From an uncultured Candidatus Saccharibacteria bacterium (lineage in GTDB: Bacteria; Patescibacteriota; Minisyncoccia; Phycocordibacterales; UBA6065): a stretch of DNA of 61,632 bases. The position numbers and the translations under genes were made by a program. Positions 1,962 to 51,981 of the stretch are shown piece by piece (position 1 is the first letter of the stretch; each line of letters starts with the position of its first letter). The stretch lies in NCBI GenBank assembly GCA_964495425.1, contig CAZBVG010000004.1, positions 1 through 61,632 of the forward strand, in the 5' to 3' direction. Under the pieces are notes generated by a model. That model ran no database searches. It was not told the origin of the DNA and saw only the letters and a list, made by a program, of their open reading frames with translations.

Positions 1962-1967
1962 CTTTAC

Positions 1968-5209: not shown

Positions 5210-5408
5210 TCTTCACACCCAGACTACTGTGGGTGGATTAGACGCCATACGTGCTACCCCAACACGTAGGAAATTACATAACTGTATTGATTGTACCTCC
5301 AAAATCTTGCCGGACAAGCACGATGTCCACAGCAAAGATAGGTTGCAAATATTTCTGAGATATATAGTCTGTAACCAGCACCTTAGTTCATCATATACCG
5401 AAACCCCT

Positions 5409-5804: not shown

Positions 5805-5862
5805 GCCGACTTTTTTATGCAAACAAAAACCACCGAATGTCGGTGGTTTTTGTGGGAAAGAT

Positions 5863-6240: not shown

Positions 6241-6274
6241 GTGATTTTACTAAATGCGAATAAATTAAACTGAA

Positions 6275-6766
6275 TTAAGCTGACTTCTTCTTTGCAATCT
6301 CGCTTGTCGCAACCACGAATCCTCGAATTGGAGAATTGAAGAGATTGACGATCTGAGCGTAGAGGGTCTTCTTGTCTGGGATTGAAGAATACGTGAGTAC
6401 TTCTTCTTTCGTGATGTACTTTCCTTCGAAAATACCTCCGAGGATCGAGAGCTTGTCCTTATTCTTTTTAAGGAAAGCACCGACTTCACGAGCTGTCGCG
6501 AGGTTGTCAGTTGAATATGCAACTGCAACTTCTGCACCCATCATAGGCTTTGTGCCTGATACCTTTGCGGCATCGAGCGCTCGGCCCATAAGAGTTTTCT
6601 TTGCGACGAGGAATCCGACGCCCTGAGCCTTGAAGCCCTTTCGCATCGTATTCGCCTCGTTTACCTTAAGTCCCTTGAATCCAACAAAGACCGCGCCTTT
6701 CGAATCTTTAAAGACTGATTCGAGCTCTGCTACGAGCTCCTTTTTCTTGTCTTTGGTGATTGGCAT
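6275..6766 (-). CDS. rplJ: 50S ribosomal protein L10
   Basis: 163-aa uL10-like translation immediately upstream of rplL. Confidence 0.93.
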   Translation of the reverse strand: MPITKDKKKELVAELESVFKDSKGAVFVGFKGLKVNEANTMRKGFKAQGVGFLVAKKTLMGRALDAAKVSGTKPMMGAEVAVAYSTDNLATAREVGAFLKKNKDKLSILGGIFEGKYITKEEVLTYSSIPDKKTLYAQIVNLFNSPIRGFVVATSEIAKKKSA

Positions 6767-24055: not shown

Positions 24056-25156
24056 TTAGGCAATAGAGCGCTTTTTCTGCATATCATCGATGAATTCCAT
24101 AATCATAGAAGCAATAGGTACACACAAAATGATACCCAAGAAACCTGCTAGCTTTAGCCCCACAAGAAGCGCAAGAATAACGAGGATTGGTGGGACACCT
24201 ACAATTTTCTTTACCACTAACGGGTAAATAAGATGATTCTCTAGCTGTTGAATCACGATATATAAACCAGCAACAACAAAAGCCGCTGATGTACCCGTAT
24301 CAGAATATGCGGTTGCAATGGCAGGAATTGCCGCGATAATTGGACCGAAAAGTGGAATCATTTCGAGAAAGGCGGCAAATACGGCAAACAAAAGTGCATT
24401 TTTTACACCAAGAAGCGCAAGGCCAATATAGACAAGTACACCGACAACAAGAGCGAGAATAAGCTGCCCTTGCATCCAAAGCGCGATTTTTGTCTGTGTT
24501 CGCTTCCACAAACTTACCACGTACCCTTCCTGTTTATCAGGGACAACAGTACGCAAAAAATGCTCCACTCCATCTTCTTGAACTGCAAGATAAAACGAAA
24601 GCACCACAATGAGTATGAAAGAGAGAATACCGCCAAACACCGAACTGGCTGAATGCACAAATCCAGCAGAAACTGCCGTTATAGCTTCATTAATTCCCTC
24701 TACTGCCCCTTGAATCGAGAAATCTTTGGATGAAGTAGTTATAAGCTTACGAGACTCATCGATCCCTTCAGCAAGCGTAATCGCCGCCTGCTTTGACTGC
24801 TCTGTTGTTTCTTCATCGAGCGGATTCCAAAGTGAAGATGAAGAGAGATACTCGGGGACTGAATTTAAAAATTCAGATGTATCCTGAAGCAATCTAGGTA
24901 CGAATGAATAGAACACGCTCACCAAAATACTACCGATAATTGCATAGGTAATGAGTGCAGAGATAACTCGTGGCAAAGATTTATCCATAAACCACTTCAC
25001 CATAGGCTCAAGTGAAGAAGCTATCACAACCGCAGTCAAAACAACGAGAATAATATCCTTTAACATGAAAAGAACGATTGTGCAGACAATCAATAGAATG
25101 CCCTTTGCAATAGTCATTAGGCTTATTTCTACGCGTGTTTCGTTCATTTCCTTCAT
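24056..25156 (-). CDS. AI-2E family transporter (PerM/UPF0118)
   Basis: Polytopic, with the characteristic C-terminal LEMIPLFGPIIAAIPA region. Confidence 0.85.
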   Translation of the reverse strand: MKEMNETRVEISLMTIAKGILLIVCTIVLFMLKDIILVVLTAVVIASSLEPMVKWFMDKSLPRVISALITYAIIGSILVSVFYSFVPRLLQDTSEFLNSVPEYLSSSSLWNPLDEETTEQSKQAAITLAEGIDESRKLITTSSKDFSIQGAVEGINEAITAVSAGFVHSASSVFGGILSFILIVVLSFYLAVQEDGVEHFLRTVVPDKQEGYVVSLWKRTQTKIALWMQGQLILALVVGVLVYIGLALLGVKNALLFAVFAAFLEMIPLFGPIIAAIPAIATAYSDTGTSAAFVVAGLYIVIQQLENHLIYPLVVKKIVGVPPILVILALLVGLKLAGFLGIILCVPIASMIMEFIDDMQKKRSIA

Positions 25157-25168
25157 GGGTCAATGATA

Positions 25169-26440
25169 CTACGTATTCAACACTTTTTTGAGTGCCGCTA
25201 GATCTATACCCTTTCCAATGACGCCTACTGTAAGTTTTTTTGAATCAAAGAGAGTGGCAGCAACTCGCTGTATATCTTCAGCGGTTATTTTTGAATAAAT
25301 CTCATCAAATTTTTCAGGAGTATAAATATCATTTTTTATTACTTCTTGATCTACAAGAAAATCAGCTACATCGTCTGATGTCTCAAGACCCATACGAAGA
25401 TGCGCACGCCGGTATTCTTTCACTTTCTCAAGCTCTTGAACTGAAACAAGTTCATACTTTATTCGATCTGTTTCTTTCAATATCGCATCAACGATTTCTG
25501 GCACACGTGCATGCGCTGTACCGGTCGAGATATAAAAACGTCCAAAAGTTTTACTTGTGCCATGGTGCGCACCAATATAGTATCCCGAACCCAACTCTTC
25601 GCGGAGTTTTATAAAAAGACGCGAGCTCATACCTGCACGCAAAATATTTCTAACCATGCTGGCAACGTAACGGTCTGGATGCTTTCGATCAAATGTCCTC
25701 CACGACAAAATAATATGAGCCTGATCTGTGTCCTTTTCCAACGAGACAAGCTCTGGTCCCTCCTGAATTCTGTCCTTTGTCGGTAATCCAGGCCGAGATT
25801 CAGCATCTTTCAAATCACTGAATGTTTGTCGTGCCCATGAGAGCATCTCCTCTTCATCGATTCCACCAGCTATAGCAATAACAGTATTCTTGGGAGTGTA
25901 TTGAGATTTTTTGTATGCAATAAGATCATCACGAGTAATTGCCTTCACAGTTTCTTTTGTGCCTAACACATCTCTCGAGGCTGGCTCACCTTTATACATA
26001 TGCTTCACAAGCGCCTCACTAATTTTTTCTTGAGGGTCATCACCATACATATCTATCTCACCCATAACTACCCCCTTCTCCTTTTCAATTTCTGCTACAG
26101 GAAAAATTGAGTGTTTGTACACATCAGACACCACATCAGCAATTTTTGCGAAATGTCGCACATCAGCTTTTGCCCAATATCCTGTCACCTCACTCCCCGT
26201 GAATGCATTATATGAAGCTCCGATCGAATCAAGTTCTGTAGAAATATCTCTCGCCGTAGGTCGTTTCTCGGTTCCCTTAAAACACATATGCTCCAAAAAA
26301 TGTGAGATACCGGATTGCTCAGGTGTTTCATGATGACTGCCCGTAGCCACATTTATCATCACGGTCACAGTTGGATTTCCCGCCATTGGAGCGGTAATCA
26401 CGCGAACACCATTCGGAAGAATTGTTTTGGTAAATTTCAT
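25169..26440 (-). CDS. M16 family zinc peptidase (insulinase-like)
   Basis: HFLEHMCFKG provides the HxxEH zinc motif, followed by EIDMYGDDP. Confidence 0.9.
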   Translation of the reverse strand: MKFTKTILPNGVRVITAPMAGNPTVTVMINVATGSHHETPEQSGISHFLEHMCFKGTEKRPTARDISTELDSIGASYNAFTGSEVTGYWAKADVRHFAKIADVVSDVYKHSIFPVAEIEKEKGVVMGEIDMYGDDPQEKISEALVKHMYKGEPASRDVLGTKETVKAITRDDLIAYKKSQYTPKNTVIAIAGGIDEEEMLSWARQTFSDLKDAESRPGLPTKDRIQEGPELVSLEKDTDQAHIILSWRTFDRKHPDRYVASMVRNILRAGMSSRLFIKLREELGSGYYIGAHHGTSKTFGRFYISTGTAHARVPEIVDAILKETDRIKYELVSVQELEKVKEYRRAHLRMGLETSDDVADFLVDQEVIKNDIYTPEKFDEIYSKITAEDIQRVAATLFDSKKLTVGVIGKGIDLAALKKVLNT

Positions 26441-26565
26441 AATCGTGAGTATAGCATTCGGTCCTTGGTGAAAGTATTTGCTTTTTTATAATATATATTG
26501 CATAGTATTAATAGCCAGCACGTCACCCACAATCAAGGAACACGGCCTTAAAATCGTGTATCTCC

Positions 26566-26802
26566 ATGGATAAATCCCCAAAGAATGTTTGGATGCACAT
26601 AAACAACTCTGTTGGTTATCTCTGCATCTTCCTTGTCCTTGCGTTCTTCTCGCTCGGAGCAAGTGTCGGTTTCTGGTACTTCATGCACGGCACACCCCCA
26701 GCCTTCAGCGTGCAGTTCATCATGATCTGGATAGTGAGTGCGGTTATCTTGGTGTTATGCATCAAGGAAACCAATCATTACATCGTTCATGATCGTGATT
26801 GA
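26566..26802 (+). CDS. Small membrane protein (78 aa)
   Basis: Two TM helices, followed by a GC-rich terminator hairpin at 26808-26832. Confidence 0.5.
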   Translation: MDKSPKNVWMHINNSVGYLCIFLVLAFFSLGASVGFWYFMHGTPPAFSVQFIMIWIVSAVILVLCIKETNHYIVHDRD

Positions 26803-26838
26803 AAAAGCCCCGGTTGCGTACGCAACCGGGGCTATTCT

Positions 26839-28170
26839 TTATTTTCCTAATTTCTGTGAAAGATATGAAGCCAAATCTTTCAGCATAATCTTTTCCTGGT
26901 CACCCGTATCACGATCTCTGACAGTCACTGGATGGCCTGCCTTTTCAAGCGTATCAAAATCAACCGTAACGCAAAACGGTGTACCAATTTCATCCTGTTT
27001 TCGATATCTCTTACCAATAGAACCAGCCGCATCATACTCAACTGCACCAAATTCTTTTCGGAGCACTTTATATATCTCCTGTGCCTTTTCTGTAAGCGCC
27101 TCCTTATTTTTAAGAAGCGGAAACACTGCTACCTTTATCGGCGCAACTGCTGGAGAAAGTTTGAGATAAACACGTTTTTCACCCGCCAACTCATCTTCCC
27201 TATAAGCGGAAGACAAGACCGCAAGAACGGTTCGATCGACACCAAACGATGGTTCAATAACGTGTGGCACAAATCTCGCCTTTGTTTCTTCATCAAAATA
27301 TGAAAGATCAACATTTGATGCTGCTGCGTGTGCTTTCAGATCAAAGTCTGTTCGATACGCAAGACCATACAGTTCCTTTTTACCGAACGGGTACTCAAAT
27401 TCAAAATCGATCGTGCGCTTTGAATAGTGCGCAAGGTCCTCAGGAGCTATTTCGAGTTCGTGCACGCTCTTCTTTGGCAAACCTATATCTGTCGTAAACG
27501 CATGGACTTCTTTTACAAAATGATCAAACACTTCCTTCCAATTCTTTGGATCAACAAAATACTCAATTTCCATCTGCTCGAATTCACGAGTTCTGAAAAT
27601 AAAGTCGCGAGGAGCAATTTCGTTTCGAAATGCCTTACCTATTTGAGCCATACCAAATGGAAGTTTGGGATGGAATGTATCAAGAATATTCTTGAAATTC
27701 ACAAACATGCCCTGGGCCGTTTCGGGTCGTAGATACGAAACCGCTGCGTCATCTTCCATAGCTCCCACATGGGTTTTAAACATCATATTAAACTGCTTTT
27801 CCGCACCAAGCTTGCCGCCGCATTCAGGGCATTTCTTTGTATCCTCAAGATGATCTGCACGGAATCGTCTCTTACACTTTTCACATTCAACCAATGGATC
27901 TGAAAAGCCTCCAACATGGCCTGAGGCTTTCCAGGTATTCTGATTCATCAAAATTGCAGCATCCATGCCATACATATCATCTCGATCTGTCACAAATCTC
28001 TTCCACCAGAGATGCTTTATGTTATGTTTGAGCGCTACACCCAACGGTCCGTAGTCCCACGTACCGGCAAGACCACCATAAATTTCAGAGCCTTGAAATA
28101 TAAAACCTCGTCTCTTGCAAAGAGAAATGAGATTTTCCATTACTGCATTTTTTTCTTCTTTTTTTGCCAT
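26839..28170 (-). CDS. glyQS: Glycyl-tRNA synthetase, alpha2 (class II) type
   Basis: RGFIFQGSEIYGGLAGTWDYGPLG and FRNEIAPRDFIFRTREFEQMEIEYF motifs. Confidence 0.96.
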   Translation of the reverse strand: MAKKEEKNAVMENLISLCKRRGFIFQGSEIYGGLAGTWDYGPLGVALKHNIKHLWWKRFVTDRDDMYGMDAAILMNQNTWKASGHVGGFSDPLVECEKCKRRFRADHLEDTKKCPECGGKLGAEKQFNMMFKTHVGAMEDDAAVSYLRPETAQGMFVNFKNILDTFHPKLPFGMAQIGKAFRNEIAPRDFIFRTREFEQMEIEYFVDPKNWKEVFDHFVKEVHAFTTDIGLPKKSVHELEIAPEDLAHYSKRTIDFEFEYPFGKKELYGLAYRTDFDLKAHAAASNVDLSYFDEETKARFVPHVIEPSFGVDRTVLAVLSSAYREDELAGEKRVYLKLSPAVAPIKVAVFPLLKNKEALTEKAQEIYKVLRKEFGAVEYDAAGSIGKRYRKQDEIGTPFCVTVDFDTLEKAGHPVTVRDRDTGDQEKIMLKDLASYLSQKLGK

Positions 28171-28174
28171 GAAT

Positions 28175-30088
28175 TTAATTCTGAACTACATCGTCGCCTT
28201 CTTTAAATGTTAGGTCGGTTGATGTTCGTGTTGAAAGTGATGGTGCGGTATTTTGAATGGTAACTCCCGTAAATGCATCCACACCCGTAATTTTTGTATT
28301 GGTGACAAGCGATGGAGTTGTTCCAACCTGGTTGATACTTGGTCGAAGCGATACCTGGAACGACACCTGTTTGCCTCCGCTAGCGTCCGTATTTCGCGGC
28401 ACACTACCCACATTCCAGGTTATGGTACCTCCTGTCGAATTGTAGGTTATTTGTGCATCCGAAGGGCTTATAGCATCTGTCCATGATACATATGGAGGAA
28501 GTGAGGCTGTTACCTTCGCACCGGTGATATTATTCGAAGTATTCGTAACTGTCCATACTATCGTGTAGGTTGTCACCTGGTCTGCTCTTGGAGGAATCGG
28601 GCCTGTATTTGATAGACTTCCTTGATTGCGAAGCGCACGAGCTGAAAGCGTAAGATTCGAAACCAGCTTCACAGAACGTGTTACCGCAGAAGTAATCTCC
28701 TGAGGTACGCCGCCGGTATCGACTCGACTGCCCTTTGCCGATACAGTTACGCTCATTTGAGGATTAAGTACAGATTGCCCGGGTGCAGCGTTGCTTGATG
28801 CAAAACTAAAACTTACACGACCGTTTTCTCCCGGAGCTACCGTATCAAGACCAGACGTCCTTCCCGCCTCCCAAATGATTGTGTTATTGAGAGAATCATA
28901 AAATCCTCCATCAACAGTCACCGAGCTTTTATTAAGCACATTTCCTGTTAGCTTGGCTTCGATGCGAGCATTCGTAATCTTGTCAGGACTATTATTTGTC
29001 CAAATAATTTCAGCTCGAATAGGTCGGCCGGGTTCAGCAGCTATATCGCCTCGATTCCCATCAAATGCGACATCAATTCCAAGAAACGGTCGCTCTATGG
29101 TGAATGAATGATCACGAGAAACGATATTGGTTGCAATTTCTCGTTCATTTGAAGCGCTTTGAATTCCAACATTTGCTCGCAATACGCGCTCCTCATCATT
29201 TTGACCTTCAGTTGTTGCTTGAAGCTTTATTGTTCGCTTTGCGCCAGGTGAAAGATCACCGATCTTCCATATGCTGTTTCCATATGACGGTTGTGGGCTC
29301 GCTGACGTTACAGTAAATCCAAATGGATAATCCAAACTAACCAAAAGATCACGCACAGGGACGGTTGTATTTGATGTAACCGTAACTGTAAAATCTGACG
29401 CTTGGCCTCCAAGTACTTTATCGAGTCCATCAATTGTCACAATCACTGGTGAAGATGAGATAGAAACACTGTATTCCTTTTCTTTATAGAATGTTGCGTT
29501 CGAGTTTTCTGTTTGATACTCAACTTTAAATTGAATATTTTTTTGAGCACCCTCTTCACCAAACAGAATCGAAGAAAGTGACTGCTGAGCCACGGATTGA
29601 GACTTAATACTTCCCAACGGGAGCTTCACTCGGGTAAGTTCGATTGACGCATTTGAAGCATCCTTGGTGCCTTCAGGGTACTCAACAATAAGATTTACAT
29701 TCTCGATATTCGTAGCATTACGATTCACTACAGAAACATTGAGTCCAAGCGGTTCTCCACCGGTAATGGATACCGGGCCTTCAATCAGAATGTTTACGTT
29801 GTCTGCGGAAACGAAGTTTTTACCACCGAACAATGTGTATCCACCAATAACCGCAGCGACGATGAAAAAAACAAACGCGCTTATAAAAAGATAACTATAC
29901 GTCTTTCGTACCGTTCTCATCCGTACAGGGTCTTCCATATCTGCTTCCTTTTCATCCTGCCAAGTCTGAGGAACTTCTGTTGCACCTTGATGAATTGTGT
30001 GGCGCATATCTGTAGCCATCTCGCCGGTTCGAGAATAGAGGCTTTTATTCACTCGCTCTAAAGGACTCTTTTTATCTGATTCAAACAT
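28175..30088 (-). CDS. Large membrane-anchored extracytoplasmic protein with repeated Ig/CARDB-like beta domains
   Basis: A cytoplasmic N-terminus, one TM helix (YLFISAFVFFIVAAVIGGYTLF), then about 540 aa of repeated beta-rich modules. Confidence 0.7.
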   Translation of the reverse strand: MFESDKKSPLERVNKSLYSRTGEMATDMRHTIHQGATEVPQTWQDEKEADMEDPVRMRTVRKTYSYLFISAFVFFIVAAVIGGYTLFGGKNFVSADNVNILIEGPVSITGGEPLGLNVSVVNRNATNIENVNLIVEYPEGTKDASNASIELTRVKLPLGSIKSQSVAQQSLSSILFGEEGAQKNIQFKVEYQTENSNATFYKEKEYSVSISSSPVIVTIDGLDKVLGGQASDFTVTVTSNTTVPVRDLLVSLDYPFGFTVTSASPQPSYGNSIWKIGDLSPGAKRTIKLQATTEGQNDEERVLRANVGIQSASNEREIATNIVSRDHSFTIERPFLGIDVAFDGNRGDIAAEPGRPIRAEIIWTNNSPDKITNARIEAKLTGNVLNKSSVTVDGGFYDSLNNTIIWEAGRTSGLDTVAPGENGRVSFSFASSNAAPGQSVLNPQMSVTVSAKGSRVDTGGVPQEITSAVTRSVKLVSNLTLSARALRNQGSLSNTGPIPPRADQVTTYTIVWTVTNTSNNITGAKVTASLPPYVSWTDAISPSDAQITYNSTGGTITWNVGSVPRNTDASGGKQVSFQVSLRPSINQVGTTPSLVTNTKITGVDAFTGVTIQNTAPSLSTRTSTDLTFKEGDDVVQN

Positions 30089-30112
30089 TTCCGCATTATA
30101 CCACGAAGACGC

Positions 30113-30679
30113 CTAGAGCTGAGTCTCCTTCAACGCCTTATTTATCTCCATGATTACCTCCTTTTTCTTGGACTGAATGAGCGGCAGATTGTATACGGAA
30201 AATTCATCCTTAGCTTCCTGCCCCAATATTATGTGCACATCGAGATATCCGAGCGAAGAAAGCACGTGAATAAGCGCAAGTGATTCAAACGCGATCTGCT
30301 CCTCCCTAGTAAGAGCCATGTATTTCTCGTCAAAAAGCGCCAATAAAGCCGAAAAAAGTTTTTCATTCACTTCTTCTCCTTGAACAAGTCTTCGAACCAA
30401 CGAAAGCACACGAGCGCGCATAAGCATGTTTTCTTGAGGTGATTTTTTGTCATGTGCCCCCGTGAGCCTCCACACCTCCCTTCCTTTCACAAGCGAAAAA
30501 GTAGCGAGCGAATATTCTTCGATCGCATAACGAAGTTTTGAAGCAAGAAGTCTCACCCCTTGAGCCTTTGCTTTAATGAGGCCAAAATCCTTGGTGTAAA
30601 TCCAAAAGGTTTTTGAAGCTTCTCCCGAAGGGGTACTTCCGAGTACAAATCCTTCTGTAGTATAGACGGCGTATGACAT
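30113..30679 (-). CDS. recO: DNA repair protein RecO (short form)
   Basis: N-terminal OB-fold pattern TEGFVLGSTPSGEASKTFWIYTKDFGLIKAKAQGVR. Confidence 0.8.
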   Translation of the reverse strand: MSYAVYTTEGFVLGSTPSGEASKTFWIYTKDFGLIKAKAQGVRLLASKLRYAIEEYSLATFSLVKGREVWRLTGAHDKKSPQENMLMRARVLSLVRRLVQGEEVNEKLFSALLALFDEKYMALTREEQIAFESLALIHVLSSLGYLDVHIILGQEAKDEFSVYNLPLIQSKKKEVIMEINKALKETQL

Positions 30680-30765
30680 ACCTAGATTGTAACAAAGAAG
30701 ATCCTTGCGTTTATGGCATATGTAGGTTAAAAAGTGAACAGAGTTTTTTCACATTCAACCTAACT

Positions 30766-31377
30766 ATGAGTATCACTCAAGCAAAAAGAGGCACCTTAAC
30801 TGCTCTTACCGGACCTTTCTGTTGCGGGAAGACAAAAATCGCCGAGCGTCTCGTCGCTACGGGTGAGGTGCGCAAAGTGAGAACCGTCACCACCCGCCCT
30901 CCTCGGACACATGAAATCAATGGTAAGCACTACGATTTCTACGATGATGACACCTTCAGGCGTGCAGCTGATGCAGGAAAATTCCTGGAAACAGCCACCA
31001 TCAACGGCTTTTTCTACGGAACACCCCGTTCCACCATTCTTGATGGACTCGCCCGCGGTCGTCACTTTGTTGTGTGTATCGATCCACAGGGAATCGAATC
31101 GCTTCTGGCGGATAGGAACGAGCTTCTTGGCGAGGCAATGATCACTATTTACCTTGAAGTATCACTTCAAGAAGCAATCGGGCGTTACCTCGACCGCGAT
31201 TCCTCGTTCTCTCGCCTTGAGCTTGAGCGCAGGATGAAAACACGCGAGACCGAAGAAACCATGAAGCACATCTGCCAATACGTCATCCCTAATCCCAACG
31301 GGATGATTGATGAGGTGTTTCAGAAAATTCGATTGAAGATCGCTCGTAGGAAAAAACAGTTGCACACCTTTGTTTGA
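30766..31377 (+). CDS. gmk: Guanylate kinase
   Basis: GPFCCGKT P-loop (GxxxxGKT), TTRPPRTHEINGKHYDF and GFFYGTP. ATG at 30766. Lines inside the gene counted 67% and 55% GC. Confidence 0.85.
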   Translation: MSITQAKRGTLTALTGPFCCGKTKIAERLVATGEVRKVRTVTTRPPRTHEINGKHYDFYDDDTFRRAADAGKFLETATINGFFYGTPRSTILDGLARGRHFVVCIDPQGIESLLADRNELLGEAMITIYLEVSLQEAIGRYLDRDSSFSRLELERRMKTRETEETMKHICQYVIPNPNGMIDEVFQKIRLKIARRKKQLHTFV

Positions 31378-31404
31378 TCCCAATCCCGCATTATGCGGGA
31401 TTTT

Positions 31405-34400
31405 TTATTTCTTAAATGCGATTTTGAAAGTATATTCTTCAATAACAAGCGGTTGTGCGTGCACCATCGTCTGGTGTTCTACACCTGTCACAAGAGTTAC
31501 CCTCTTTATTTCAGAAGCAAACGCTGAAACGAGTTCTTTACCTTTTTCATCAGAATCAAGGAGAAGAACTACTTTATCTGTAACGGTGAGCTTTTCCGTC
31601 TTGCGGAGTTCCTGGATCGAGCGGATGAGATCGCGCACAACTCCCTCCTTCTTAAGTTCATCTGTAACTTTGGTATCTAGCTCTGTATCATTTTCAAGCG
31701 CAGAGGTGACTATAACTGACTTTACATTTACCTCATCTTGAATAAGTTCAATGTACTCAGGACCAAGTTCCTTTGTTTTTACTTTAAGAAGTGCAAGAGG
31801 CTGACGAACTTTGATATTTGCTTTTGCTCGTTCTTGAAGAGCAAGTGTTACAAGGCGCTTTGTCTCCGCCATGTCTGAAATAACCTTTGCGTCATATGTT
31901 GCTGCAGTTGGCCAGTCTGCAAGGTGTACGCTTTCTGGATCTTGTGCTGTTTTAACCTTACAGAAAAGATGCTCCGCATAGAATGGAGTAAATGGAGCCA
32001 TTATTTTCGAAAACTCTCGCAATATGAATCGAGTGGTCTCGAGCGCATTCTTTCGATCCTGTAGATCATCTGACTTAAATCGATCTCGAGAGCGTCGTAG
32101 GTACCATGTCGAAAGATCATCCACAAAACCAAGAAGTGGTCGAGCACCTTTATCAATCTGATACTTTTCAAGTGCACGTGTTACTTCTTCACGTGTTTCA
32201 AGAAGTCGTCCGTAAATCCAGAGGTCTAAAACGTGAGTTGATGTAAATGAAAGATTCTCCTTTGCAGGCGATGTAGCGTACATCTCATAAAACGAGAGAA
32301 CGTTATCGAGTCTTTGCAGGAGTTTCTTTGAGACTTCATCTACTCCCTTCTCTGAGAATCGAACATCCTCAGCCTTTACCGCCGGCGATGAAGCGAGGAA
32401 ATATCGCAATGAATCCGCACCATACTTTTCAACTGTCGGCATAAGAGGCGGATAATTGTTCTTTGACTTCGACATTTTCTGACCGTCTTCGGCGAGCACG
32501 AGTCCGTTTACCACCACATTCTTGTATGGGCTTACACCAAAGAGCCCCACGCCAAGAACAAGGAGTGAGTAGAACCAACCTCGTGTTTGATCGAGTCCTT
32601 CTGCAATGAAGTCAGCAGGAAAACCAACACGTTTTTTGAAAAGTCCTCCCTTTGGATCGAAGTGTGAACGAGCCCTACCTGTGTAAAACGTCTCACCGTA
32701 TGGCATTGCACCTGATTCAAACCAGCAATCAAAAACTTCAGGAACGCGTTCAAGCATTTCTCCATCTGGCGCCACGTATTCCACGTCATCAATATATGGT
32801 CGATGAAGGTCGAGATTGTAATGTGCATTATGAGGTAATGGCACAAAATCAAACGATCGCATTTCTCCCGGATTACGGAAATAGCGTCGCTCATCATGGA
32901 GCACCTTATCAAAGCTTGGTGTGTCCTCAATGCCGTGAATAATGGTATTACATATTGCACCGTGGCTTACGATGAGAATTCTTTTACCAGAATGCTTTGA
33001 ATCAATGTCATACAGAGTATCGAACACGCGCTTTTTGAGTTCATCAGGTGATTCCATTCCAGGACAAAGTCCATGCGTCCTAATACGCCTATCAGTATCA
33101 CTCCAAAGTTTTCCTTCCTGCTCAGGACCAACTTTGAATTCACGCAATAGGACATCGTATTTAATTTCATGTTCTGGAATACCAAGTTCCTGCGCATATA
33201 TTTTTGCAGTTTCCTTTGCACGCACAAAGTCTGACGCGTAAATTGCATCAATACCGTGTTTTGCTAGTCGTTTCGCCTGTGCCAACACCTGACTCCTGCC
33301 CTTTTCAGTAAGGTGATACACAACACTCACATCAGAATTTGAAATGCCACGAACGTTTGTTTCAGATTCTCCGTGTCGAGCAAGTGTGTATTTGTTGCCC
33401 GATCGTTTTACGTATCGCGAAAGTTCTTTAACTGTACCGATTGTATAGATTTTTCCAGACTCCACACCTCGCCACACAGGAATTGGCGCACCCCAGAAAC
33501 GAGAACGTGAAATTGCCCAATCACGTGCACCTTCAAGCCATTTGCCAAAACGTCCATCACGAATGTCTTCGGGTACCCAACCGACTTTCTTGTTTTGCTT
33601 TACAAGATCATCTTTAAAATCGGTAACTCGAACAAACCATGACGACGTAGCATAGTTAAGAAGCGGAGTCTCACATCTCCAACAATGAGGATAAGAGTGA
33701 ATGATCTTCTTTTTCTCCAAAAGAAATCCATTATGAGCAAGCCATTTGATGATTTCGATATCAGTTTTCTGGTGCCCATCTTTTTCTACTGATTTTGGCT
33801 TTGCGTCGTGTCCAGCAAAATCAATCACCTCCTTCTTTATCTTTCCATCCATGCCAACATGTTGAATAAACGGGAGCTTTTCCCTTTCACCGAGCTTCAT
33901 ATCATCTTCACCGAACGCTGGTGCGATATGCACGATACCGGTTCCGTCCGTTGTTGTTACAAATTCCGCGCCATATATCTTGTATCCATTCTCAATATGC
34001 TTGGTTGCGCTATTGTTGTAGTACGGAAAAAGGGGCTTATACTTTTTGCCAATAAGTTCACGACCAAAGACAGTTTTGAGAACCTTGTATTCCGTCCCAA
34101 ATACCGATCCGACAAGCTGCTGTGCCATAACATATGTCTCCCCCTCTACTTTTCCTGACACATAAACATATTCAACATCTGGGTGAACTGCGAGCGCCAC
34201 GTTACCCGGTAAAGTCCAAGGAGTCGTTGTCCATGCAACAAAGTAAGTTTTAGGAGTAGCCGAGTCTTCAAATTTAATATAGACAGAAATATCTGTAATA
34301 TCTTTGTATCCCTGATTTACCTCAAAATTCGAAAGCGATGTCTCACATCGAGGGCAAATCTGCATCGACTTAAAACCTTCGTAAATGAGACCCTTTTCAC

Positions 34401-34899
34401 TGAGTGTCTTGAAGATCCACCAGACAGACTGCGTATAGCCAGCATCCATGGTTCGATAATCATCAACCATGTCGACCCATCGACCTATTCGAGGAATAAT
34501 ATTTCTCCACTCTTTCGTATATCGAAGCACCGCATCTCGAGCAGCTTCGTTGAATTTTCCAACACCGTAATCCAAAATTTCCTTCTTGGTTTTAAGACCA
34601 AGTTCTTTTTCAATAAGGTTCTCGACAGGCAAACCATGACAGTCCCATCCCCAGCGACGCGCAACATGATACCCTTGCATGGTTTTATAGCGAGGAATAA
34701 CGTCTTTAATGGTTGTCGGCAAAAGGTGTCCAAAATGCGGAAGACCGGTTGCAAATGGAGGGCCATCATAAAACACAAATTCCTTACCACCTTTCTTAAG
34801 CGATTTTGCAAAAATATCGTTCTTTTGCCAAAACGAAAGTACCTTGTCTTCTATTTCAACAAGCTTTGTTTTAGGCTTTGTATCTGGGTTTTCAGCCAT
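31405..34899 (-). CDS. ileS: Isoleucyl-tRNA synthetase carrying an internal histidine-phosphatase-like domain (1164 aa)
   Basis: PHFGH (HIGH), the CP1 editing region and KMSKS are present. There is an extra ~200-aa segment (aa ~497-696) with RHGES...SHG motifs. Confidence 0.96.
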   Translation of the reverse strand: MAENPDTKPKTKLVEIEDKVLSFWQKNDIFAKSLKKGGKEFVFYDGPPFATGLPHFGHLLPTTIKDVIPRYKTMQGYHVARRWGWDCHGLPVENLIEKELGLKTKKEILDYGVGKFNEAARDAVLRYTKEWRNIIPRIGRWVDMVDDYRTMDAGYTQSVWWIFKTLSEKGLIYEGFKSMQICPRCETSLSNFEVNQGYKDITDISVYIKFEDSATPKTYFVAWTTTPWTLPGNVALAVHPDVEYVYVSGKVEGETYVMAQQLVGSVFGTEYKVLKTVFGRELIGKKYKPLFPYYNNSATKHIENGYKIYGAEFVTTTDGTGIVHIAPAFGEDDMKLGEREKLPFIQHVGMDGKIKKEVIDFAGHDAKPKSVEKDGHQKTDIEIIKWLAHNGFLLEKKKIIHSYPHCWRCETPLLNYATSSWFVRVTDFKDDLVKQNKKVGWVPEDIRDGRFGKWLEGARDWAISRSRFWGAPIPVWRGVESGKIYTIGTVKELSRYVKRSGNKYTLARHGESETNVRGISNSDVSVVYHLTEKGRSQVLAQAKRLAKHGIDAIYASDFVRAKETAKIYAQELGIPEHEIKYDVLLREFKVGPEQEGKLWSDTDRRIRTHGLCPGMESPDELKKRVFDTLYDIDSKHSGKRILIVSHGAICNTIIHGIEDTPSFDKVLHDERRYFRNPGEMRSFDFVPLPHNAHYNLDLHRPYIDDVEYVAPDGEMLERVPEVFDCWFESGAMPYGETFYTGRARSHFDPKGGLFKKRVGFPADFIAEGLDQTRGWFYSLLVLGVGLFGVSPYKNVVVNGLVLAEDGQKMSKSKNNYPPLMPTVEKYGADSLRYFLASSPAVKAEDVRFSEKGVDEVSKKLLQRLDNVLSFYEMYATSPAKENLSFTSTHVLDLWIYGRLLETREEVTRALEKYQIDKGARPLLGFVDDLSTWYLRRSRDRFKSDDLQDRKNALETTRFILREFSKIMAPFTPFYAEHLFCKVKTAQDPESVHLADWPTAATYDAKVISDMAETKRLVTLALQERAKANIKVRQPLALLKVKTKELGPEYIELIQDEVNVKSVIVTSALENDTELDTKVTDELKKEGVVRDLIRSIQELRKTEKLTVTDKVVLLLDSDEKGKELVSAFASEIKRVTLVTGVEHQTMVHAQPLVIEEYTFKIAFKK

Positions 34900-34932
34900 A
34901 TGTAAGACTACATTAGCAATTTTCCAACCTTT

Positions 34933-36654
34933 TTACATCTTTTCTGGTACACGCATCCCGAGAAGCTTCAGACCGTTCTCAAGAACAATGCGCACCGATT
35001 GTGTAATCGCTACACGAAGCGGCGACTCTGGATCATCCTTTTTCACGATTACAACATTCGCATACCACGCATTAAACATTGATGAAAGTTCAGTGAGATA
35101 AGTCACAACGAGGTGCGGTGCCCGTTCAACCGATGCCCGTGATACGACTTCCGGAAACTTTGCTACGTGACGCATGAGAACACTGGTGTACATCCCCTCT
35201 TTTGAGACTTTAGGCTTGATCTTCTCTTTCTTTGCCTTATCTAAAACAGACTGAGCACGAACCGCTGTGTACAAAAGATATGGACCTGAATCACCTTCAA
35301 ATGAAATTGATTTATCAAAATCATAAATAATGTCACTTGAGGTGACCTGCTTGAGAATGGAGTATTTTATTGCGGCGATTGCAACTATTTCTGCTGTCTG
35401 CGCCTTTTCCTTATCAGTCATTTCACGACTCTGAAGTTTTTCGTGAACAAGTTTTTCAACATCATGTATGAGAGATTCTCCTGTAATCACATTTCCTTTT
35501 CGTGATGACATTTTCCCTTCGGCAAAACGAAGCATACCGTGTGAAATATGCTCGGTTACTTTTGCTGCTTCAGGCTCAAGTATTTCAAGCGCTTTCAAAA
35601 GCACACGGAAGTAATCTGCTTGCTCATTGGCCGTAATGATTATTGATTTATCTGGACGAACCTTCTTCCACTTTTTTGTGTTAAGACCGAGTTCTTTTGT
35701 CTCGTATGTAGGAATACCCTGTGAGTTTATAAATACACGAGTATGGAGTTTCGGATCATACTTTTCTCCTTTAAATACAACCGCCCCATCTGATTTTTCA
35801 AATATCCCTTTCTCGAGATTTTCCTCAACAAGCGCCAAACCATCATGAACAACTTCACTTTCGAGATAGTAGTAATCGAACTTGGTTCCAAGTTTTTTAT
35901 ATATTTCTTCAAAATGTTTAAGGCTCCAGCGACGACCGAGCTTATAGAGCTTCATGAGTTTGCGATCTTTGCCCTCAAAAATCTTCTTGTTAAGCTCCGT
36001 GATCTCTTTTTTTGCTTCTGGGTTATCTTCGTACGCTGCCGATCCTTCGACATAACATGAGCCAATAAACGCAACACGATCCTTGAGCGCAGAGTATCGT
36101 GAAGGCATTTTCTCCTCATTTTTACATATTGCCCACATAGCCTTTGCCACATGAAGACCAAAGTCGCCTTGATAACACATGCGGCGAATCTTTGCGCCTT
36201 GTGATGCAAGAAGTCGTGCAATCGATTCACCGATCGCATTAGACATAAGGTGACCAATATGGAACTCCTTAAATGGATTTGGGTCAGTATACTCAACAAG
36301 CATCTTCTGTCCTCTCCACTCATTCGAAAATCCGTACAAATCCTTTCGCTTGAGAATTGTTTCGAGCTCGTTTACAAAATATGAATTTGAAAGGAAAAAG
36401 TTTATGAAGCCTGGACCCGCCACCTCTATCTTTTCTATATGTTCGATGTTCTGTTTCGAAAGCTCTGCAGCAATTTTATTTCCAAGCTCACGAGGATTAG
36501 CTTTTGCAGCCTTTGCCAAAGAAAGTGCAACATTGGTCGCAAAATCACCATTCGCCACATCAGCTGGATGTTCGAGGTTGATTTCGCCAACAGAAAGACC
36601 CAAAACCTTAAGGGCTTCCTGTATTTTGGCTTTAATTGTCGTCTGGATGTCCAT
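34933..36654 (-). CDS. argS: Arginyl-tRNA synthetase
   Basis: EFHIGHLMSNAIGES (HIGH motif), a class I ArgRS-like body, and a C-terminal DALR-type domain. Confidence 0.96.
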   Translation of the reverse strand: MDIQTTIKAKIQEALKVLGLSVGEINLEHPADVANGDFATNVALSLAKAAKANPRELGNKIAAELSKQNIEHIEKIEVAGPGFINFFLSNSYFVNELETILKRKDLYGFSNEWRGQKMLVEYTDPNPFKEFHIGHLMSNAIGESIARLLASQGAKIRRMCYQGDFGLHVAKAMWAICKNEEKMPSRYSALKDRVAFIGSCYVEGSAAYEDNPEAKKEITELNKKIFEGKDRKLMKLYKLGRRWSLKHFEEIYKKLGTKFDYYYLESEVVHDGLALVEENLEKGIFEKSDGAVVFKGEKYDPKLHTRVFINSQGIPTYETKELGLNTKKWKKVRPDKSIIITANEQADYFRVLLKALEILEPEAAKVTEHISHGMLRFAEGKMSSRKGNVITGESLIHDVEKLVHEKLQSREMTDKEKAQTAEIVAIAAIKYSILKQVTSSDIIYDFDKSISFEGDSGPYLLYTAVRAQSVLDKAKKEKIKPKVSKEGMYTSVLMRHVAKFPEVVSRASVERAPHLVVTYLTELSSMFNAWYANVVIVKKDDPESPLRVAITQSVRIVLENGLKLLGMRVPEKM

Positions 36655-36709
36655 GAGTGGCTAAAATTAGCGTGTTTTCATTGTATCAGCAATAGAAAGG
36701 TAGTATTGC

Positions 36710-36737
36710 TTGACATTAAAATAATATATGGTATCCT
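36710..36737 (+). promoter_or_regulatory. Candidate promoter with an extended -10
   Basis: TTGACA (36710-36715), a 16-nt spacer, then TGgTATCCT (36729-36737). Confidence 0.45.
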
Positions 36738-36743
36738 GATATC

Positions 36744-36960
36744 AGATGACGGTTTCAAGTGACAACAGAAAAAACACTTAAAGGGGTTCACTTGGTCATG
36801 CCGGCACGGGGGAATATGCTCCTTTGTTAAAAAAATCGCTGTTTTTACCAGTTTTCGCTCGTACTCGAGCGCCTCAGCAATTGAAAAAGTCAGGAAAAAC
36901 TGGAAGAGGGCTTAAGACCTCGAAACCGCCACACAACAAAGCATAATGGCGGTTTTCTTT
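36744..36960 (+). ncRNA. Candidate structured small RNA of unknown family (strand uncertain)
   Basis: No ORF longer than 15 codons on either strand. It contains nested helices: ATGAC..CAAGTGA / TCACTTG-GTCAT; CCAGTTTTC...GAAAAACTGG enclosing GCTCG-tact-CGAGC; and a terminal hairpin AAACCGCCA...TGGCGGTTT plus a T-run. Confidence 0.3.
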
Positions 36961-36963
36961 TAT

Positions 36964-37398
36964 CTATTTTCCTGTAGATCCAAAACCTCTCTCACCTCGT
37001 GCGGACATCGAGAGCTCACCATCTTTCACTTCCTTAAAGTTTACCTCTTCATATTTGTGAATAATCATCTGGGCAACCTTGTGGCCAGGTTCAAATGTAT
37101 AGGTTTCTTTACTCAAGTTCATAACCCCTACACGCACCTCCCCACGATATCCTGAATCTACTACGTTTCCATACGTAATAATGCCGTGTTTGAATGAAAG
37201 TCCGCTCTTTTCATAAATAATTCCCACGCAGCCCTTTGGAATCTCCATCTTGTACCCAGTATTGATCGATGCTCGTTCCATGGGCGCAAGCGTAACTTTC
37301 TCACCTACATAGAGATCAAAACCAGCGTCGCCCGGCATAGCAAACTTTGGCACAGGTACATTTTCGTGAAGCCTCACAATCTTGAGTGTCTTTTTCAT
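36964..37398 (-). CDS. dut: dUTP diphosphatase
   Basis: AMPGDAGFDLY and GYRGEVRVGV motifs. I prefer the start MKKTLKIV at 37398. Confidence 0.93.
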   Translation of the reverse strand: MKKTLKIVRLHENVPVPKFAMPGDAGFDLYVGEKVTLAPMERASINTGYKMEIPKGCVGIIYEKSGLSFKHGIITYGNVVDSGYRGEVRVGVMNLSKETYTFEPGHKVAQMIIHKYEEVNFKEVKDGELSMSARGERGFGSTGK

Positions 37399-37432
37399 AA
37401 AATCACTATAACAAGTAGAAAAAAGACCGCAA

Positions 37433-38155
37433 TTACTTTGCGGTCTTAGAAAGAAACGGTGAAACAATAGCATCAACCTGTGCAAACACGTCATCACGTG
37501 ACTTATTGGCATCAACAAACTTCACCTTGAAAGGAAAAAGTGTACCGAATGTGCGATAAGCCTTCATGACACGGAGATGAAAGTCTGTCTTTCTTTCATC
37601 GTAGTGGTTCATTTCTCCCTTTCGTTCTGCAACTCGTCGAGCGCCCTCTTTAGGATCAACCTCGAGAATGACATAAAGATCAGGAGAGACCTTGGTGTAA
37701 ATAGCACGATGGATTTGGAAGAAAAGCTTTTTGAGAGCATACCCTCCTTCCTGACCACCAATCTGGTAGCCCCAACTCGTTATGCTTCCTCGATTCGACA
37801 CAAATGATCTTCCGCCGAGAATCACGTGCTCAGCCTTTCGATGCATGTGATCTGACCTTCCTGCAGTAACGAGAAGCATCTGGGTTAAAGCATTCGCATC
37901 TCGGGCAAGCTTTGAGTCAAGCATGACCGCACGCATTTCTTCTGCGTATGGAGTACCACCTGGTTCTCGAGAAAATTCAACATAAGGATATTTCACCTTG
38001 AGCTTATCAATCACCGTATCCTTGCCTGCGCCTTCTCCACCATCTATCTGGATAAAAAAGCCGTGAGAAGGATTCTTTCGTGAAAAAATATGCCTGAGAA
38101 GATTTCCTACAAAAATCTCTACGTATAACAGTACTGTTTTCATGTGTTTCTGCAT
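37433..38155 (-). CDS. tmk: Thymidylate (dTMP) kinase
   Basis: FIQIDGGEGAGKDT P-loop and the DRY-like region. There is a ~30-aa N-terminal extension, and an alternative ATG at 38143. Confidence 0.85.
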   Translation of the reverse strand: MQKHMKTVLLYVEIFVGNLLRHIFSRKNPSHGFFIQIDGGEGAGKDTVIDKLKVKYPYVEFSREPGGTPYAEEMRAVMLDSKLARDANALTQMLLVTAGRSDHMHRKAEHVILGGRSFVSNRGSITSWGYQIGGQEGGYALKKLFFQIHRAIYTKVSPDLYVILEVDPKEGARRVAERKGEMNHYDERKTDFHLRVMKAYRTFGTLFPFKVKFVDANKSRDDVFAQVDAIVSPFLSKTAK

Positions 38156-38194
38156 AAAACAATACTCGACTTCGTATAAAAGTCGAGTAATTTG

Positions 38195-39364
38195 TTATTT
38201 TGATCTTAAAACCTTGTCGATCTTCTGAGCGAGTTTGATCATATCCTTCTCTTTCTTACCCCGTGTTGTCTCTCCGGCCGTACCAAGTCGAATTCCCGAT
38301 GGGTCAACCGGCGGTCGAGTATCGTACGGAATCGCGTTCTTGTTTACGATAATTCCCGCTTTCTCAAGTTTATCTGACGCCTCTTTGCCTCCAATCCCCT
38401 CCTTCGCCACATCAACGAGAATAAGATGGCTTTCTGTTCCTCCTGAGATAATTCGCCAGCCAAGATTTGAAAGTTCTTTTGCCAATGTCTGCGCATTACG
38501 AATAACCTGCTTTGCGTATTTTTTAAATGCTGGTGACATTGCTTCCTTAAGGGCAACAGCGATCGCCGCCGTCTGATTCATATGTGGACCACCCTGAAGG
38601 CCCGGGAAAACAGCCCGATCAATCTTTTTATTTAGTTCGCGCTGATCTATTTTTGAAAAAATGAGAGCGCCTCGAGGACCACGAAGTGTTTTATGCGTAG
38701 TTGTGGTAACAACATCTGCATACGGAAATGGTGATGGATATGCTTTGCCCGCAACGAGTCCGGCAACGTGAGACATATCAACCATAAGATATGCACCGCA
38801 GGCTGTAGCAATCTCACGGAATTTTGCCCAATCAATGACGCACGGATATGCGGTAAATCCTGTAATGATCATTTTTGGTTTTTCACGAAGGGCAATTTTT
38901 TTGAGCTCATCATAGTCGAGTACTTCACTTTCCTTTGAAACCCCAAACGGCACCTGGGTCCAAAATTTTCCCGTCGCAGATACTTTATGACCATGCGTAA
39001 GATGTCCTCCGTGATCAAGCGACATACCCATCACCCTGTCTCCCTTCTCCAAAAGACCGACATAGACCGCAAGATTTGCTGGCGATCCTGACAAAGCCTG
39101 CGTATTTACCGCCCAATCAGTTTCAGATAGTCCGAAAAGTTTAAGTGCGCGCTCCGCTGCCAAGTCCTCTACTTTATCTGTAATTGAATTTCCACCGTAA
39201 TATCGTTTACCTGAATACCCTTCCGCGTATTTATTTGTAAGTTCGGAGCCGAGAGCATCGAGCACGTCCTGAGAAACATAATTTTCCGATGCGATCAGAT
39301 TTATAACTGATTTCTGTCTCGCCTTCTCTGCCTTCACAAGCTTTTCTACCTGTTTGTCTTTCAT
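38195..39364 (-). CDS. glyA: Serine hydroxymethyltransferase
   Basis: NLIASENYVS, and TTTTHKTLRGPRG containing the PLP-binding lysine. Confidence 0.96.
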   Translation of the reverse strand: MKDKQVEKLVKAEKARQKSVINLIASENYVSQDVLDALGSELTNKYAEGYSGKRYYGGNSITDKVEDLAAERALKLFGLSETDWAVNTQALSGSPANLAVYVGLLEKGDRVMGMSLDHGGHLTHGHKVSATGKFWTQVPFGVSKESEVLDYDELKKIALREKPKMIITGFTAYPCVIDWAKFREIATACGAYLMVDMSHVAGLVAGKAYPSPFPYADVVTTTTHKTLRGPRGALIFSKIDQRELNKKIDRAVFPGLQGGPHMNQTAAIAVALKEAMSPAFKKYAKQVIRNAQTLAKELSNLGWRIISGGTESHLILVDVAKEGIGGKEASDKLEKAGIIVNKNAIPYDTRPPVDPSGIRLGTAGETTRGKKEKDMIKLAQKIDKVLRSK

Positions 39365-51900: not shown

Positions 51901-51908
51901 AAAGCGTG

Positions 51909-51981
51909 TCCGCCCACCAGGAATCGAACCTGGGACCCTCTCCTTAAAAGGGAGCTGCTCTACCGACTGAGCTATGGGCGG
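51909..51981 (-). tRNA. tRNA-Lys (anticodon UUU), CCA not encoded
   Basis: The rc is CCGCCCA-TA-GCTC-AGTCGGTA-GAGC-A-GCTCC-CTTTTAA-GGAGA-GGGTC-CCAGG-TTCGATT-CCTGG-TGGGCGG-A. Confidence 0.88.

Follow-up and report, generated by a model that had tools for sequence, protein, structure and literature searches.

A histidine-phosphatase domain inserted into the catalytic core of isoleucyl-tRNA synthetase in uncultured Patescibacteria

Aminoacyl-tRNA synthetases are among the best-studied and most conserved enzymes, and new catalytic domains in their cores are rare. The textbook case is CP1, the editing domain of isoleucyl-, valyl- and leucyl-tRNA synthetase (IleRS, ValRS and LeuRS). Together with the leucine-specific domain of bacterial LeuRS, it provides the precedent for globular domains carried in Rossmann-fold loops of class Ia synthetases, and one of the two is itself a hydrolase. 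CP1 is universal and ancient, and acts on aminoacyl-tRNA or adenylate. Here, we describe another such guest. The window analysed, a stretch of 61,632 nucleotides from an uncultured patescibacterium (contig CAZBVG010000004.1 of assembly GCA_964495425.1), contains an ileS gene (31405–34899, minus strand, stop codon included) that encodes an uninterrupted IleRS of 1164 aa, within which lies a complete histidine-phosphatase domain. In contrast to CP1, this lineage-specific insert is a member of an unrelated superfamily and points to phosphatase chemistry.

The described enzymes closest to the host protein are the type 2 IleRSs, which are eukaryote-like and mupirocin-resistant and include those of Priestia megaterium (8C8U/8C8V), T. 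thermophilus (1ILE) and yeast (8WND). They share its domain order, motifs, CP1 and C-terminal DUF5915 domain (E = 2.5e-206). At the place of the insert, these enzymes have no more than a hairpin of ~35 residues, often a zinc knuckle; the window protein is longer there by 193 residues. The insert itself most resembles the broad-specificity phosphatase PhoE (YhfR) of Geobacillus stearothermophilus (1EBB, 1H2E), which has the same fold and the same catalytic residues. However, PhoE, PspA, TIGAR, the CobC-type enzymes and Rv2419c are free-standing proteins of ~200 aa, whereas the insert is embedded in the catalytic domain of another enzyme.

Histidine phosphatases joined to nucleotide-handling enzymes have been described before, namely in the mycobacterial RNase H/acid phosphatase (NF005567) and in MutT1, which combines a Nudix with a His_Phos domain (NF052459). 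In MutT1, the His_Phos domain is reported to process the nucleotide product of its partner. Likeness to these models is weak and far below the family cutoffs (E = 1.5e-14, score 54 against 326, and E = 5e-5, score 23 against 475, respectively), and both are end-to-end fusions with other partners, unlike the internal insert. An IleRS with an inserted enzyme also underlies the NCBIfam model NF040702 ('ileS_w_GNAT'), which occurs in Gracilibacteria and Peregrinibacteria, often alongside His_Phos. The inserted enzyme is a different one, however, and the window protein scores only 305 bits against the cutoff of 1999. A full-text literature search found no paper on this GNAT–IleRS fusion; a paper on SB-203208, considered as a possible account of it, was rejected because it concerns separate enzymes and not a fusion.

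The insertion proper comprises aa 497–689 (32833–33411; this and all further features of ileS lie on the minus strand) and forms an autonomous histidine-phosphatase globule, visible as a gap in the alignment with 8C8U, IleRS2 of P. megaterium. In this alignment, residues 15–496 of the window protein pair with chain residues 12–477, and residues 690–1065 with 477–850. Because the alignment resumes at the same chain residue, 477, the 193 aa were inserted at one single point. It lies in the second half of the Rossmann fold, where a short hairpin joins the RxWGxPxPxW strand to the DLHRPYIDD...WFESG segment, and corresponds to the tip of this hairpin. A sequence-only reading of the window had proposed a domain internal to this fold, between RFWGAPIPVW (ending at W476) and DLHRPYIDD (starting at D697), and in this it was right; ordinary type 2 IleRSs have only the ~35-residue knuckle hairpin there. 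Its interval of 32809–33411 was exact at the N-terminal residue and ran eight residues past the C-terminal junction. It had also placed the domain just before KMSKS; the domain is indeed upstream of that motif, but ~120 residues away in sequence.

Pfam His_Phos_1 (PF00300) matches aa 506–661 (32917–33384) over profile positions 3–162 of 194, with E = 6e-28 and 98.3 bits. The insert alone reaches 102.5 bits (E = 3e-29), which exceeds the gathering score of 21.7 by ~80 bits. The translation contains every catalytic residue expected of a branch 1 histidine phosphatase, as had been claimed from the letters of the window. The RHG motif (aa 508–510, 33370–33378) supplies R508 and the nucleophile H509, which are kept in all of the 120 best database homologs (54–100% identity, 1123–1213 aa, from NCBI, JGI, ENA and Logan assemblies) and in every synthetase-embedded or free copy of the domain examined. 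Equally invariant in these 120 homologs are R560 (33220–33222), the second phosphate-binding arginine, E587 (33139–33141), the candidate proton donor, and H646 (32962–32964), the second catalytic histidine in the SHG block. At the position of E587, all 98 IleRS representatives have E or D.

Structure prediction supports an independent domain. The AlphaFold (AF2) model of the insert alone has a predicted local distance difference test score (pLDDT) of 92.2 and a predicted template-modelling score (pTM) of 0.90, and in the full-length model the insert is again a confident, autonomous globule (pLDDT 90–97), a point that the sequence-only reading had proposed to check. Foldseek ranked PhoE (1H2E/1EBB) first, with template-modelling scores (TM) of 0.78–0.79, E = 6e-12 and 27–28% identity, among 286 matches in the Protein Data Bank (PDB) at E ≤ 0.001; PhoE was also the top PDB match by sequence (E = 6e-11). 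It was followed by TIGAR, the phosphoserine phosphatase PspA, Rv3214, the CobC-like TTHB049, the riboflavin-pathway HFP and Rv2419c. These nearest structural neighbours are all small-molecule phosphatases. True cofactor-dependent phosphoglycerate mutases (dPGMs) rank below the PhoE type, and no phosphoprotein phosphatase occurs among the 50 structural matches shown.

The insert is thus similar to PhoE in fold, but it reached none of the NCBIfam equivalog cutoffs, so that the specificity of PhoE-type enzymes cannot be transferred to it. Scores against cutoffs were 72/225 for dPGM_arch, 24/81.7 for pgm_1, 52.5/261 for GpmB, 34.9/74.5 for SixA, 58.9/162.9 for CobC and 36/350 for PspA. The insert is a member of branch 1 of the histidine phosphatase superfamily that stands outside all characterised subfamilies. 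We also considered that it might be the cell's phosphoglycerate mutase, moonlighting within IleRS. This idea was rejected, given the dPGM scores, the fold nearer to phosphatases, and the two cofactor-independent phosphoglycerate mutase (iPGM) genes in a relative whose ValRS lacks the insert (see below).

The synthetase around the insert appears intact. Its N-terminal part (aa 1–496, 33412–34899) matches residues 12–477 of 8C8U and comprises the first Rossmann half, the CP1 editing domain and the CP core as far as the knuckle hairpin's first strand. The HIGH-type signature PHFGH lies at aa 54–58 (34726–34740); H55 and G57 never vary in an alignment of 82 homologs, and H58 is at least 90% conserved. 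The editing residues WTTTPWT (223–229) and D333 are invariant in the same alignment, and the CP1-only structures 1WK8 and 1UE0 match aa 197–405. Behind the insert, the catalytic domain resumes at aa 690–860 (32320–32832), aligning to 8C8U from residue 477, with the second hairpin strand, DLHRPYIDD, WFESG, DQTRGWF and the KMSKS loop. KMSKS itself occupies aa 808–812 (32464–32478), with K808 and K811 invariant and residue 810 a Ser in 104 and an Ala in 16 of the 120 homologs. The survival of PHFGH, CP1 and KMSKS accords with what had been noted earlier. Next come the anticodon-binding domain Anticodon_1 (aa 892–1036, 31792–32226, E = 5e-27) and DUF5915, the C-terminal domain typical of type 2 IleRS (aa 1074–1164, 31408–31680, E = 8e-18).

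Whole-protein comparisons tell the same story. The product scores 854.3 bits against the cutoff of 621.4 of the IleRS equivalog TIGR00392, and Pfam finds its class I catalytic domain in two parts, with aa 20–497 covering profile positions 2–267 of 414. It matches IleRS2 and the enzymes of yeast and T. thermophilus at E = 1e-206 to 1e-191 but type 1 IleRSs only at 1e-90 to 1e-71, and is therefore affiliated with type 2. The mupirocin-resistance models MupA and MupB were not reached (725 and 688 against a cutoff of 1900). The full-length AF2 model, built from the 82-sequence alignment, has a mean pLDDT of 87.5 and a pTM of 0.77, and its IleRS body superposes on 8C8U, 8WND and 1ILE with target-normalised TM of 0.78–0.85. 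The host protein is therefore a functional-looking, normal type 2 IleRS, and we consider it very probable that one polypeptide combines two enzymes, an intact IleRS and an active phosphatase. Two further open reading frames (ORFs), of 142 aa (32532–32960, minus strand) and 123 aa (31370–31741, plus strand), lie wholly within ileS in another frame and on the other strand, respectively; given the strongly conserved ileS frame, they are almost certainly spurious.

A non-catalytic role would offer a different account of the insert. The domain might brace the hairpin and KMSKS region, or it might bind a phosphometabolite as a sensor that tunes IleRS. The junctions are confidently predicted (pLDDT 87–93), which suggests a rigid connection, and the window protein lacks cysteines at the knuckle hairpin, where IleRS2 and many relatives have a four-cysteine knuckle. 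However, the five catalytic residues are invariant, including the proton-donor Glu, and neither scaffolding nor binding would need them. Moreover, a hairpin without insert suffices in ordinary IleRSs. The 2+2 cysteines that flank the insert are kept in 42 of the 120 homologs, and insert-bearing ValRSs keep them too, while in one further protein (P0228) the knuckle is kept and the His_Phos domain is placed elsewhere. A non-catalytic role is therefore very unlikely. Because those 42 homologs keep the cysteines, the knuckle of the window protein was secondarily lost rather than replaced, and we rejected the general rule that the insert replaces a lost zinc knuckle.

PF00300 is present in all 120 of the best homologs, and the named ones are Paceibacterota, Parcubacteria, Taylorbacteria or Patescibacteria. 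Site 1, as we call the knuckle hairpin, is occupied by His_Phos in all 114 classifiable proteins of this Paceibacteria type. When the insert-only alignment was used to scan GTDB, with each species represented by a single genome, at least 480 matches to the insert were confirmed by tblastn. All 80 loci inspected have one stop-free frame with the N-terminal part of IleRS, the insert and the C-terminal part, joined at an identical junction; lineage names among them include Kaiser-, Zambryski-, Taylor- and Nomurabacteria and Minisyncoccia. The architecture thus occurs in at least 80 related uncultured species, and the total is probably in the hundreds. The insert proved to be a trait of a whole lineage, not a peculiarity of the window gene, when related ileS genes were surveyed as the sequence-only reading had suggested. 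It also belongs to a broader tendency, in Patescibacteria, for class Ia synthetases to take up enzyme domains. The label 'uncultured Candidatus Saccharibacteria' carried by many of the metagenome-assembled genomes (MAGs) is generic and does not define the taxonomic range. An insert-bearing ileS of Patescibacteria type also occurs on an 8.5-kb contig (L049, QYPD01000003.1) of a MAG labelled 'Spirochaetia bacterium', most likely a short contig that was mis-binned.

The insert is the most variable region of these proteins: identity to the window protein averages 0.43 there and ~0.70 in the Rossmann parts. In codon comparisons with the two closest homologs, the nonsynonymous divergence (dN) of the insert is 0.12–0.15 and that of the rest 0.06–0.12. 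The ratio to synonymous divergence (dN/dS) is ~0.05 in the insert and ~0.04 in the rest, both approximate since dS is saturated. The insertion is old, fixed across the Paceibacteria/Parcubacteria branch of the Patescibacteria and under strong purifying selection. These results also refute an artefact, whether a misassembly, a chimeric contig, an intein or a decaying pseudogene. The in-frame architecture recurs in the 120 homologs and in all 80 genomes, the GC content of the insert (0.43) matches its flanks, and a dN/dS of ~0.05 does not suit a decaying gene. There is no Hint or intein match in Pfam, and the insert starts at V497 and is followed by H690-N691 and then A692, with no Cys, Ser or Thr nucleophile; misassembly and an intein, the latter already doubted in the sequence-only reading, are thereby excluded.

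The same domain recurs in a second branch of IleRS. We assembled 120 homologs of a protein of this type, P0135, from Gracilibacteria, Peregrinibacteria and Peribacteria (including P0400–P0515; up to 1859 aa), and found His_Phos in 107 of them. Besides site 1, it occupies site 2, between the post-KMSKS helix and the anticodon-binding bundle, and site 3, after WF(E/D)SG. The domain is found at site 1 only in 38 proteins, at site 2 only in 42 and at site 3 only in 5; another 14 combine sites, including three copies at three sites. The remainder comprises 13 proteins without the domain and 8 that were unclassifiable (motif classification left 14 proteins unclassified overall, over both types). Copies within one protein are highly diverged, with a distance of ~0.7, so that they are not recent duplications.

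Other enzymes have entered this branch as well. Among the same 120 proteins, GNAT domains occur in 16, P-loop kinases of the AAA_33/AAA_18/Zeta type in 5 and the endonuclease-like DUF559 in 5, and a serine hydrolase and a Y1 transposase domain occur once each. In one protein (P0460), a HAD phosphatase that also matches Put_Phosphatase stands at site 3 in place of His_Phos. The Gracilibacteria-branch IleRS is a hotspot for inserted enzyme domains, and the GNAT-bearing forms explain the existence of the 'ileS_w_GNAT' model.

ValRS and, once, arginyl-tRNA synthetase (ArgRS) carry the domain too. When the insert alone was searched exhaustively against 1.84 billion cluster representatives, 373 proteins matched at E ≤ 1e-10. 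The best 150 of these comprise 89 IleRSs or fragments, 3 ValRSs and 58 proteins without a match to the IleRS flanks, the latter being one ArgRS fusion plus short or double-domain proteins without synthetase flank, a few of which are IleRS fragments. All fusion partners recovered among these 150 representatives are class Ia synthetases. One full-length ValRS, P0269, exceeds the cutoff of 704 with 956 bits and has His_Phos at the position homologous to IleRS site 1. Insert-bearing forms make up about 20 of 120 ValRS matches, in a patchy distribution over Falkow-, Kuenen- and Uhrbacteria, and relatives at ~70% core identity lack the insert. Because of this patchiness and these insert-less relatives, the ValRS insertion is regarded as a separate and younger event. 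Another ValRS (P0121, from ENA contigs of up to 3.9 kb) consists of the N-terminal half followed by four tandem, diverged His_Phos domains with intact catalytic residues, and probably ends early because its contig ends.

In the ArgRS fusion, the domain is C-terminal. It was found in one 70-kb contig (L084, Ga0180433_10000452; 4660–6741, plus strand), where ...APEHM continues in frame into FNNSYFFLRHGE..., and the fused copy is unusually basic (isoelectric point, pI, 9.6). With this contig as the one observation, we rejected the ArgRS fusion as a recurrent family. The catalytic residues are intact in the IleRS sites, in ValRS and in ArgRS alike. In a neighbour-joining tree of 167 domain copies, the ValRS copies lie nearest to those of IleRS and the ArgRS copy nearest to free-standing proteins, although the tree is poorly resolved at distances of 0.6–0.7. 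One candidate for the closest free-standing relative, P0130, was rejected, as it is an IleRS fragment whose cluster includes a 723-aa member.

This recurrence bears on what the domain is for. Since three synthetases, and several of their loops, acquired members of one phosphatase family in independent events, the domain is likely to be an active phosphatase whose value may lie in its tie to the synthetase. The same is suggested by the fact that His_Phos outnumbers far commoner superfamilies as a guest, and that an unrelated phosphatase fold substitutes for it once. Since the loops vary and the copies number from one to four, it seems that the domain need not stand in an exact geometry to the aminoacylation site.

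An alternative explanation is that a highly expressed essential gene merely offered a permissive surface loop to a housekeeping phosphatase unrelated to tRNA charging, which persists there as the cell's sole copy. The range of guests in related IleRSs would fit such a carrier, in particular the Y1 transposase domain, which derives from a mobile element; so would a position and copy number variable enough to make precise geometry unnecessary, a fold like that of generic small-molecule phosphatases and the lack of a second His_Phos gene in the window. Yet a merely permissive loop would not readily account for His_Phos in 107 and 120 of the 120 proteins of the two types, when abundant superfamilies such as GNAT, HAD, alpha/beta hydrolases and P-loop proteins are rare guests. 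Nor would it account for independent attachment in ValRS, in ArgRS and at no fewer than three loops of IleRS, for a second, unrelated phosphatase fold at the same loop, or for partners that among the best 150 representatives are class Ia synthetases throughout. We consider this explanation rather unlikely.

As to the substrate, three observations favour a small molecule: the structural neighbours are small-molecule phosphatases, the charge of the insert is near-neutral and that of the ValRS-borne copies acidic (pI 5.5, net charge ~−7), and S810 is replaced by Ala in 16 of the 120 homologs. The first two also bear on the possibility that the domain heals tRNA ends, by removing a 3'-phosphate, a phosphate derived from a 2',3'-cyclic end or a 3'-pyrophosphate, and so restores chargeable tRNA on the synthetase. 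The damage could come from ribotoxin cleavage or from toxSAS toxins, which attach pyrophosphate to the tRNA's 3'-CCA end and thereby block aminoacylation (10.1101/2021.04.30.441581; PMC11559606). All hosts of the domain are tRNA-binding enzymes, and two IleRSs (P0461, P0476) pair His_Phos with an AAA_33/Zeta-type P-loop kinase. Such a pairing recalls the polynucleotide kinase-phosphatases of RNA repair. However, kinases co-occur in only 5 of 120 proteins, the insert resembles small-molecule enzymes and is not basic, and the defence-system models of PADLOC gave no match, for which reason a link to defence was rejected. We also know of no histidine phosphatase that acts on RNA ends. tRNA-end healing is accordingly an unlikely role.

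The variation at S810 speaks against self-repair, in which the domain would be a phosphoprotein phosphatase that clears an inhibitory phosphate from the KMSKS-loop serine. The histidine phosphatase superfamily does include protein phosphatases, namely SixA, PGAM5 and Sts, and the window IleRS has a KMSKS loop. Toxin kinases of the HipA/HipT kind phosphorylate such loops, with HipA targeting S239 in the KLSKR loop of GltX and HipT targeting S197 in the KMSKS loop of TrpS (PMC6581861). In the 16 insert-bearing IleRSs with Ala at this position, however, the phosphatase residues are still invariant. The insert scores at less than half of the SixA cutoff, its structural matches contain no phosphoprotein phosphatase, as described above, and insertions at distant loops and tandem arrays are ill-suited to a phosphatase that acts in cis on one loop. 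Self-repair of this kind is highly improbable.

Our preferred explanation, to which as a whole we assign a probability of roughly 50%, is a phosphatase tied to the work of its synthetase. The PhoE-like domain would be an active phosphohydrolase that uses a phosphohistidine intermediate, and its selective value would lie in the physical and stoichiometric tie to class Ia synthetases. The substrate would be a small phosphorylated molecule rather than tRNA or protein. For such functional coupling with a small-molecule substrate, taken by itself, we see about even odds. This substrate might come from the aminoacylation and editing cycle, as one of its phosphate-bearing products or ligands. Pyrophosphate (PPi) or a nucleotide would be the foremost candidates, and local hydrolysis might then pull or tune the ATP-consuming reactions of IleRS and ValRS in organisms of minimal metabolism. 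The specific choice of PPi or a nucleotide is tentative, and we would not rely on it. Our findings are in keeping with the role on which the sequence-only reading had speculated, in which the domain might hydrolyse a by-product made by the synthetase.

Several points weigh against this explanation. In so plastic a superfamily, specificity is poorly predicted by structural likeness to small-molecule phosphatases. Histidine phosphatases are mainly phosphomonoesterases, and hydrolysis of PPi or nucleoside diphosphates has few precedents among them. A role in PPi or nucleotide hydrolysis also leaves the co-inserted GNAT, kinase and hydrolase domains unexplained.

A broader interpretation, which we regard as rather unlikely, is that tRNA charging in the Candidate Phyla Radiation includes phosphatase chemistry as an accessory step that is under selection but was not recognised before, and whose substrate belongs to the aminoacylation cycle and is acted on in cis. 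IleRS, ValRS and occasionally ArgRS would then be platforms for one to four histidine phosphatases, sometimes joined by kinase, acetyltransferase or hydrolase modules, which might for example clear a blocking phosphate from tRNA ends or destroy a phosphorylated by-product or inhibitor. If this were true, a core enzyme of translation would have a new kind of repair or quality control built into it.

The genomic surroundings of ileS are those of a housekeeping gene. Immediately upstream on the same strand, after a gap of 33 nt, lies argS (34933–36654, minus strand), which encodes an ArgRS of 573 aa with the Pfam domains Arg_tRNA_synt_N, tRNA-synt_1d and DALR_1 and without a phosphatase domain. 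The order of genes for serine hydroxymethyltransferase (SHMT), tmk, dut, argS, ileS, gmk and recO is common to close relatives, including the locus of an 82%-identical homolog (L095). In the window, the cluster spans 24056–39364 and contains SHMT, thymidylate kinase, dUTPase, argS, ileS, guanylate kinase on the opposite strand and a recO-like gene; it further holds a DUF11/CLIPPER protein, a class II synthetase, an M16 peptidase and an AI-2E transporter.

We considered that the insert might have arisen from a free-standing His_Phos gene nearby that was captured by ileS, and rejected this, as there is no such gene within 4 kb of ileS in the 80 loci or anywhere in the window. The same origin was rejected for ValRS, because no His_Phos gene lies beside valS in either an insert-less (L081) or an insert-bearing (L083) locus. 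In the insert-less locus (108–4596, plus strand, of a Patescibacteria MAG), enolase and two adjacent iPGM genes lie upstream of valS, which is followed by tyrS and argS; synthetase genes are thus clustered in such genomes.

Two RNA genes were noted elsewhere in the window. ARAGORN reported a 'tRNA-Stop' (TTA) at 51908–51981 (minus strand), a call we rejected as a one-base register error. This gene (Rfam tRNA, 68.8 bits) is most likely an ordinary tRNA-Lys(UUU), with the anticodon loop C32-U33-UUU-A37-A38. At positions 1–694 (minus strand) lies the start of a bacterial 23S rRNA gene, its first ~629 positions, ended by the window edge (Rfam, 438 bits); it could serve for a phylogenetic placement.

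No described IleRS of this architecture was known to the sequence-only reading, and the literature has not altered that. Full-text searches on IleRS with histidine phosphatase, on fusions of synthetases with histidine phosphatases, on synthetase insertions in Patescibacteria and on histidine phosphatases in the Candidate Phyla Radiation returned no relevant paper. It is known that synthetases acquire accessory domains; what is new is a lineage-wide, multi-site and multi-copy histidine phosphatase in a class Ia core. The insert-bearing proteins themselves are public, with Pfam domains precomputed, under uninformative names such as 'class I tRNA ligase family protein' or 'GNAT family N-acetyltransferase'. 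An insert-bearing IleRS fragment of 212 aa from TARA Oceans (P0130/P0399) is labelled 'COG0406 K15634', a gpmB-type phosphoglycerate mutase. Miscalling the insert as a glycolytic enzyme in this way can distort metabolic reconstructions.

In a large bacterial radiation, the only IleRS that can be recognised carries a whole second enzyme in its Rossmann fold. Minimal, host-dependent bacteria appear to need a phosphatase activity that is tied to tRNA charging. For organisms that do not grow in culture by themselves, the finding may reveal a new aspect of translation or of nucleotide economy.

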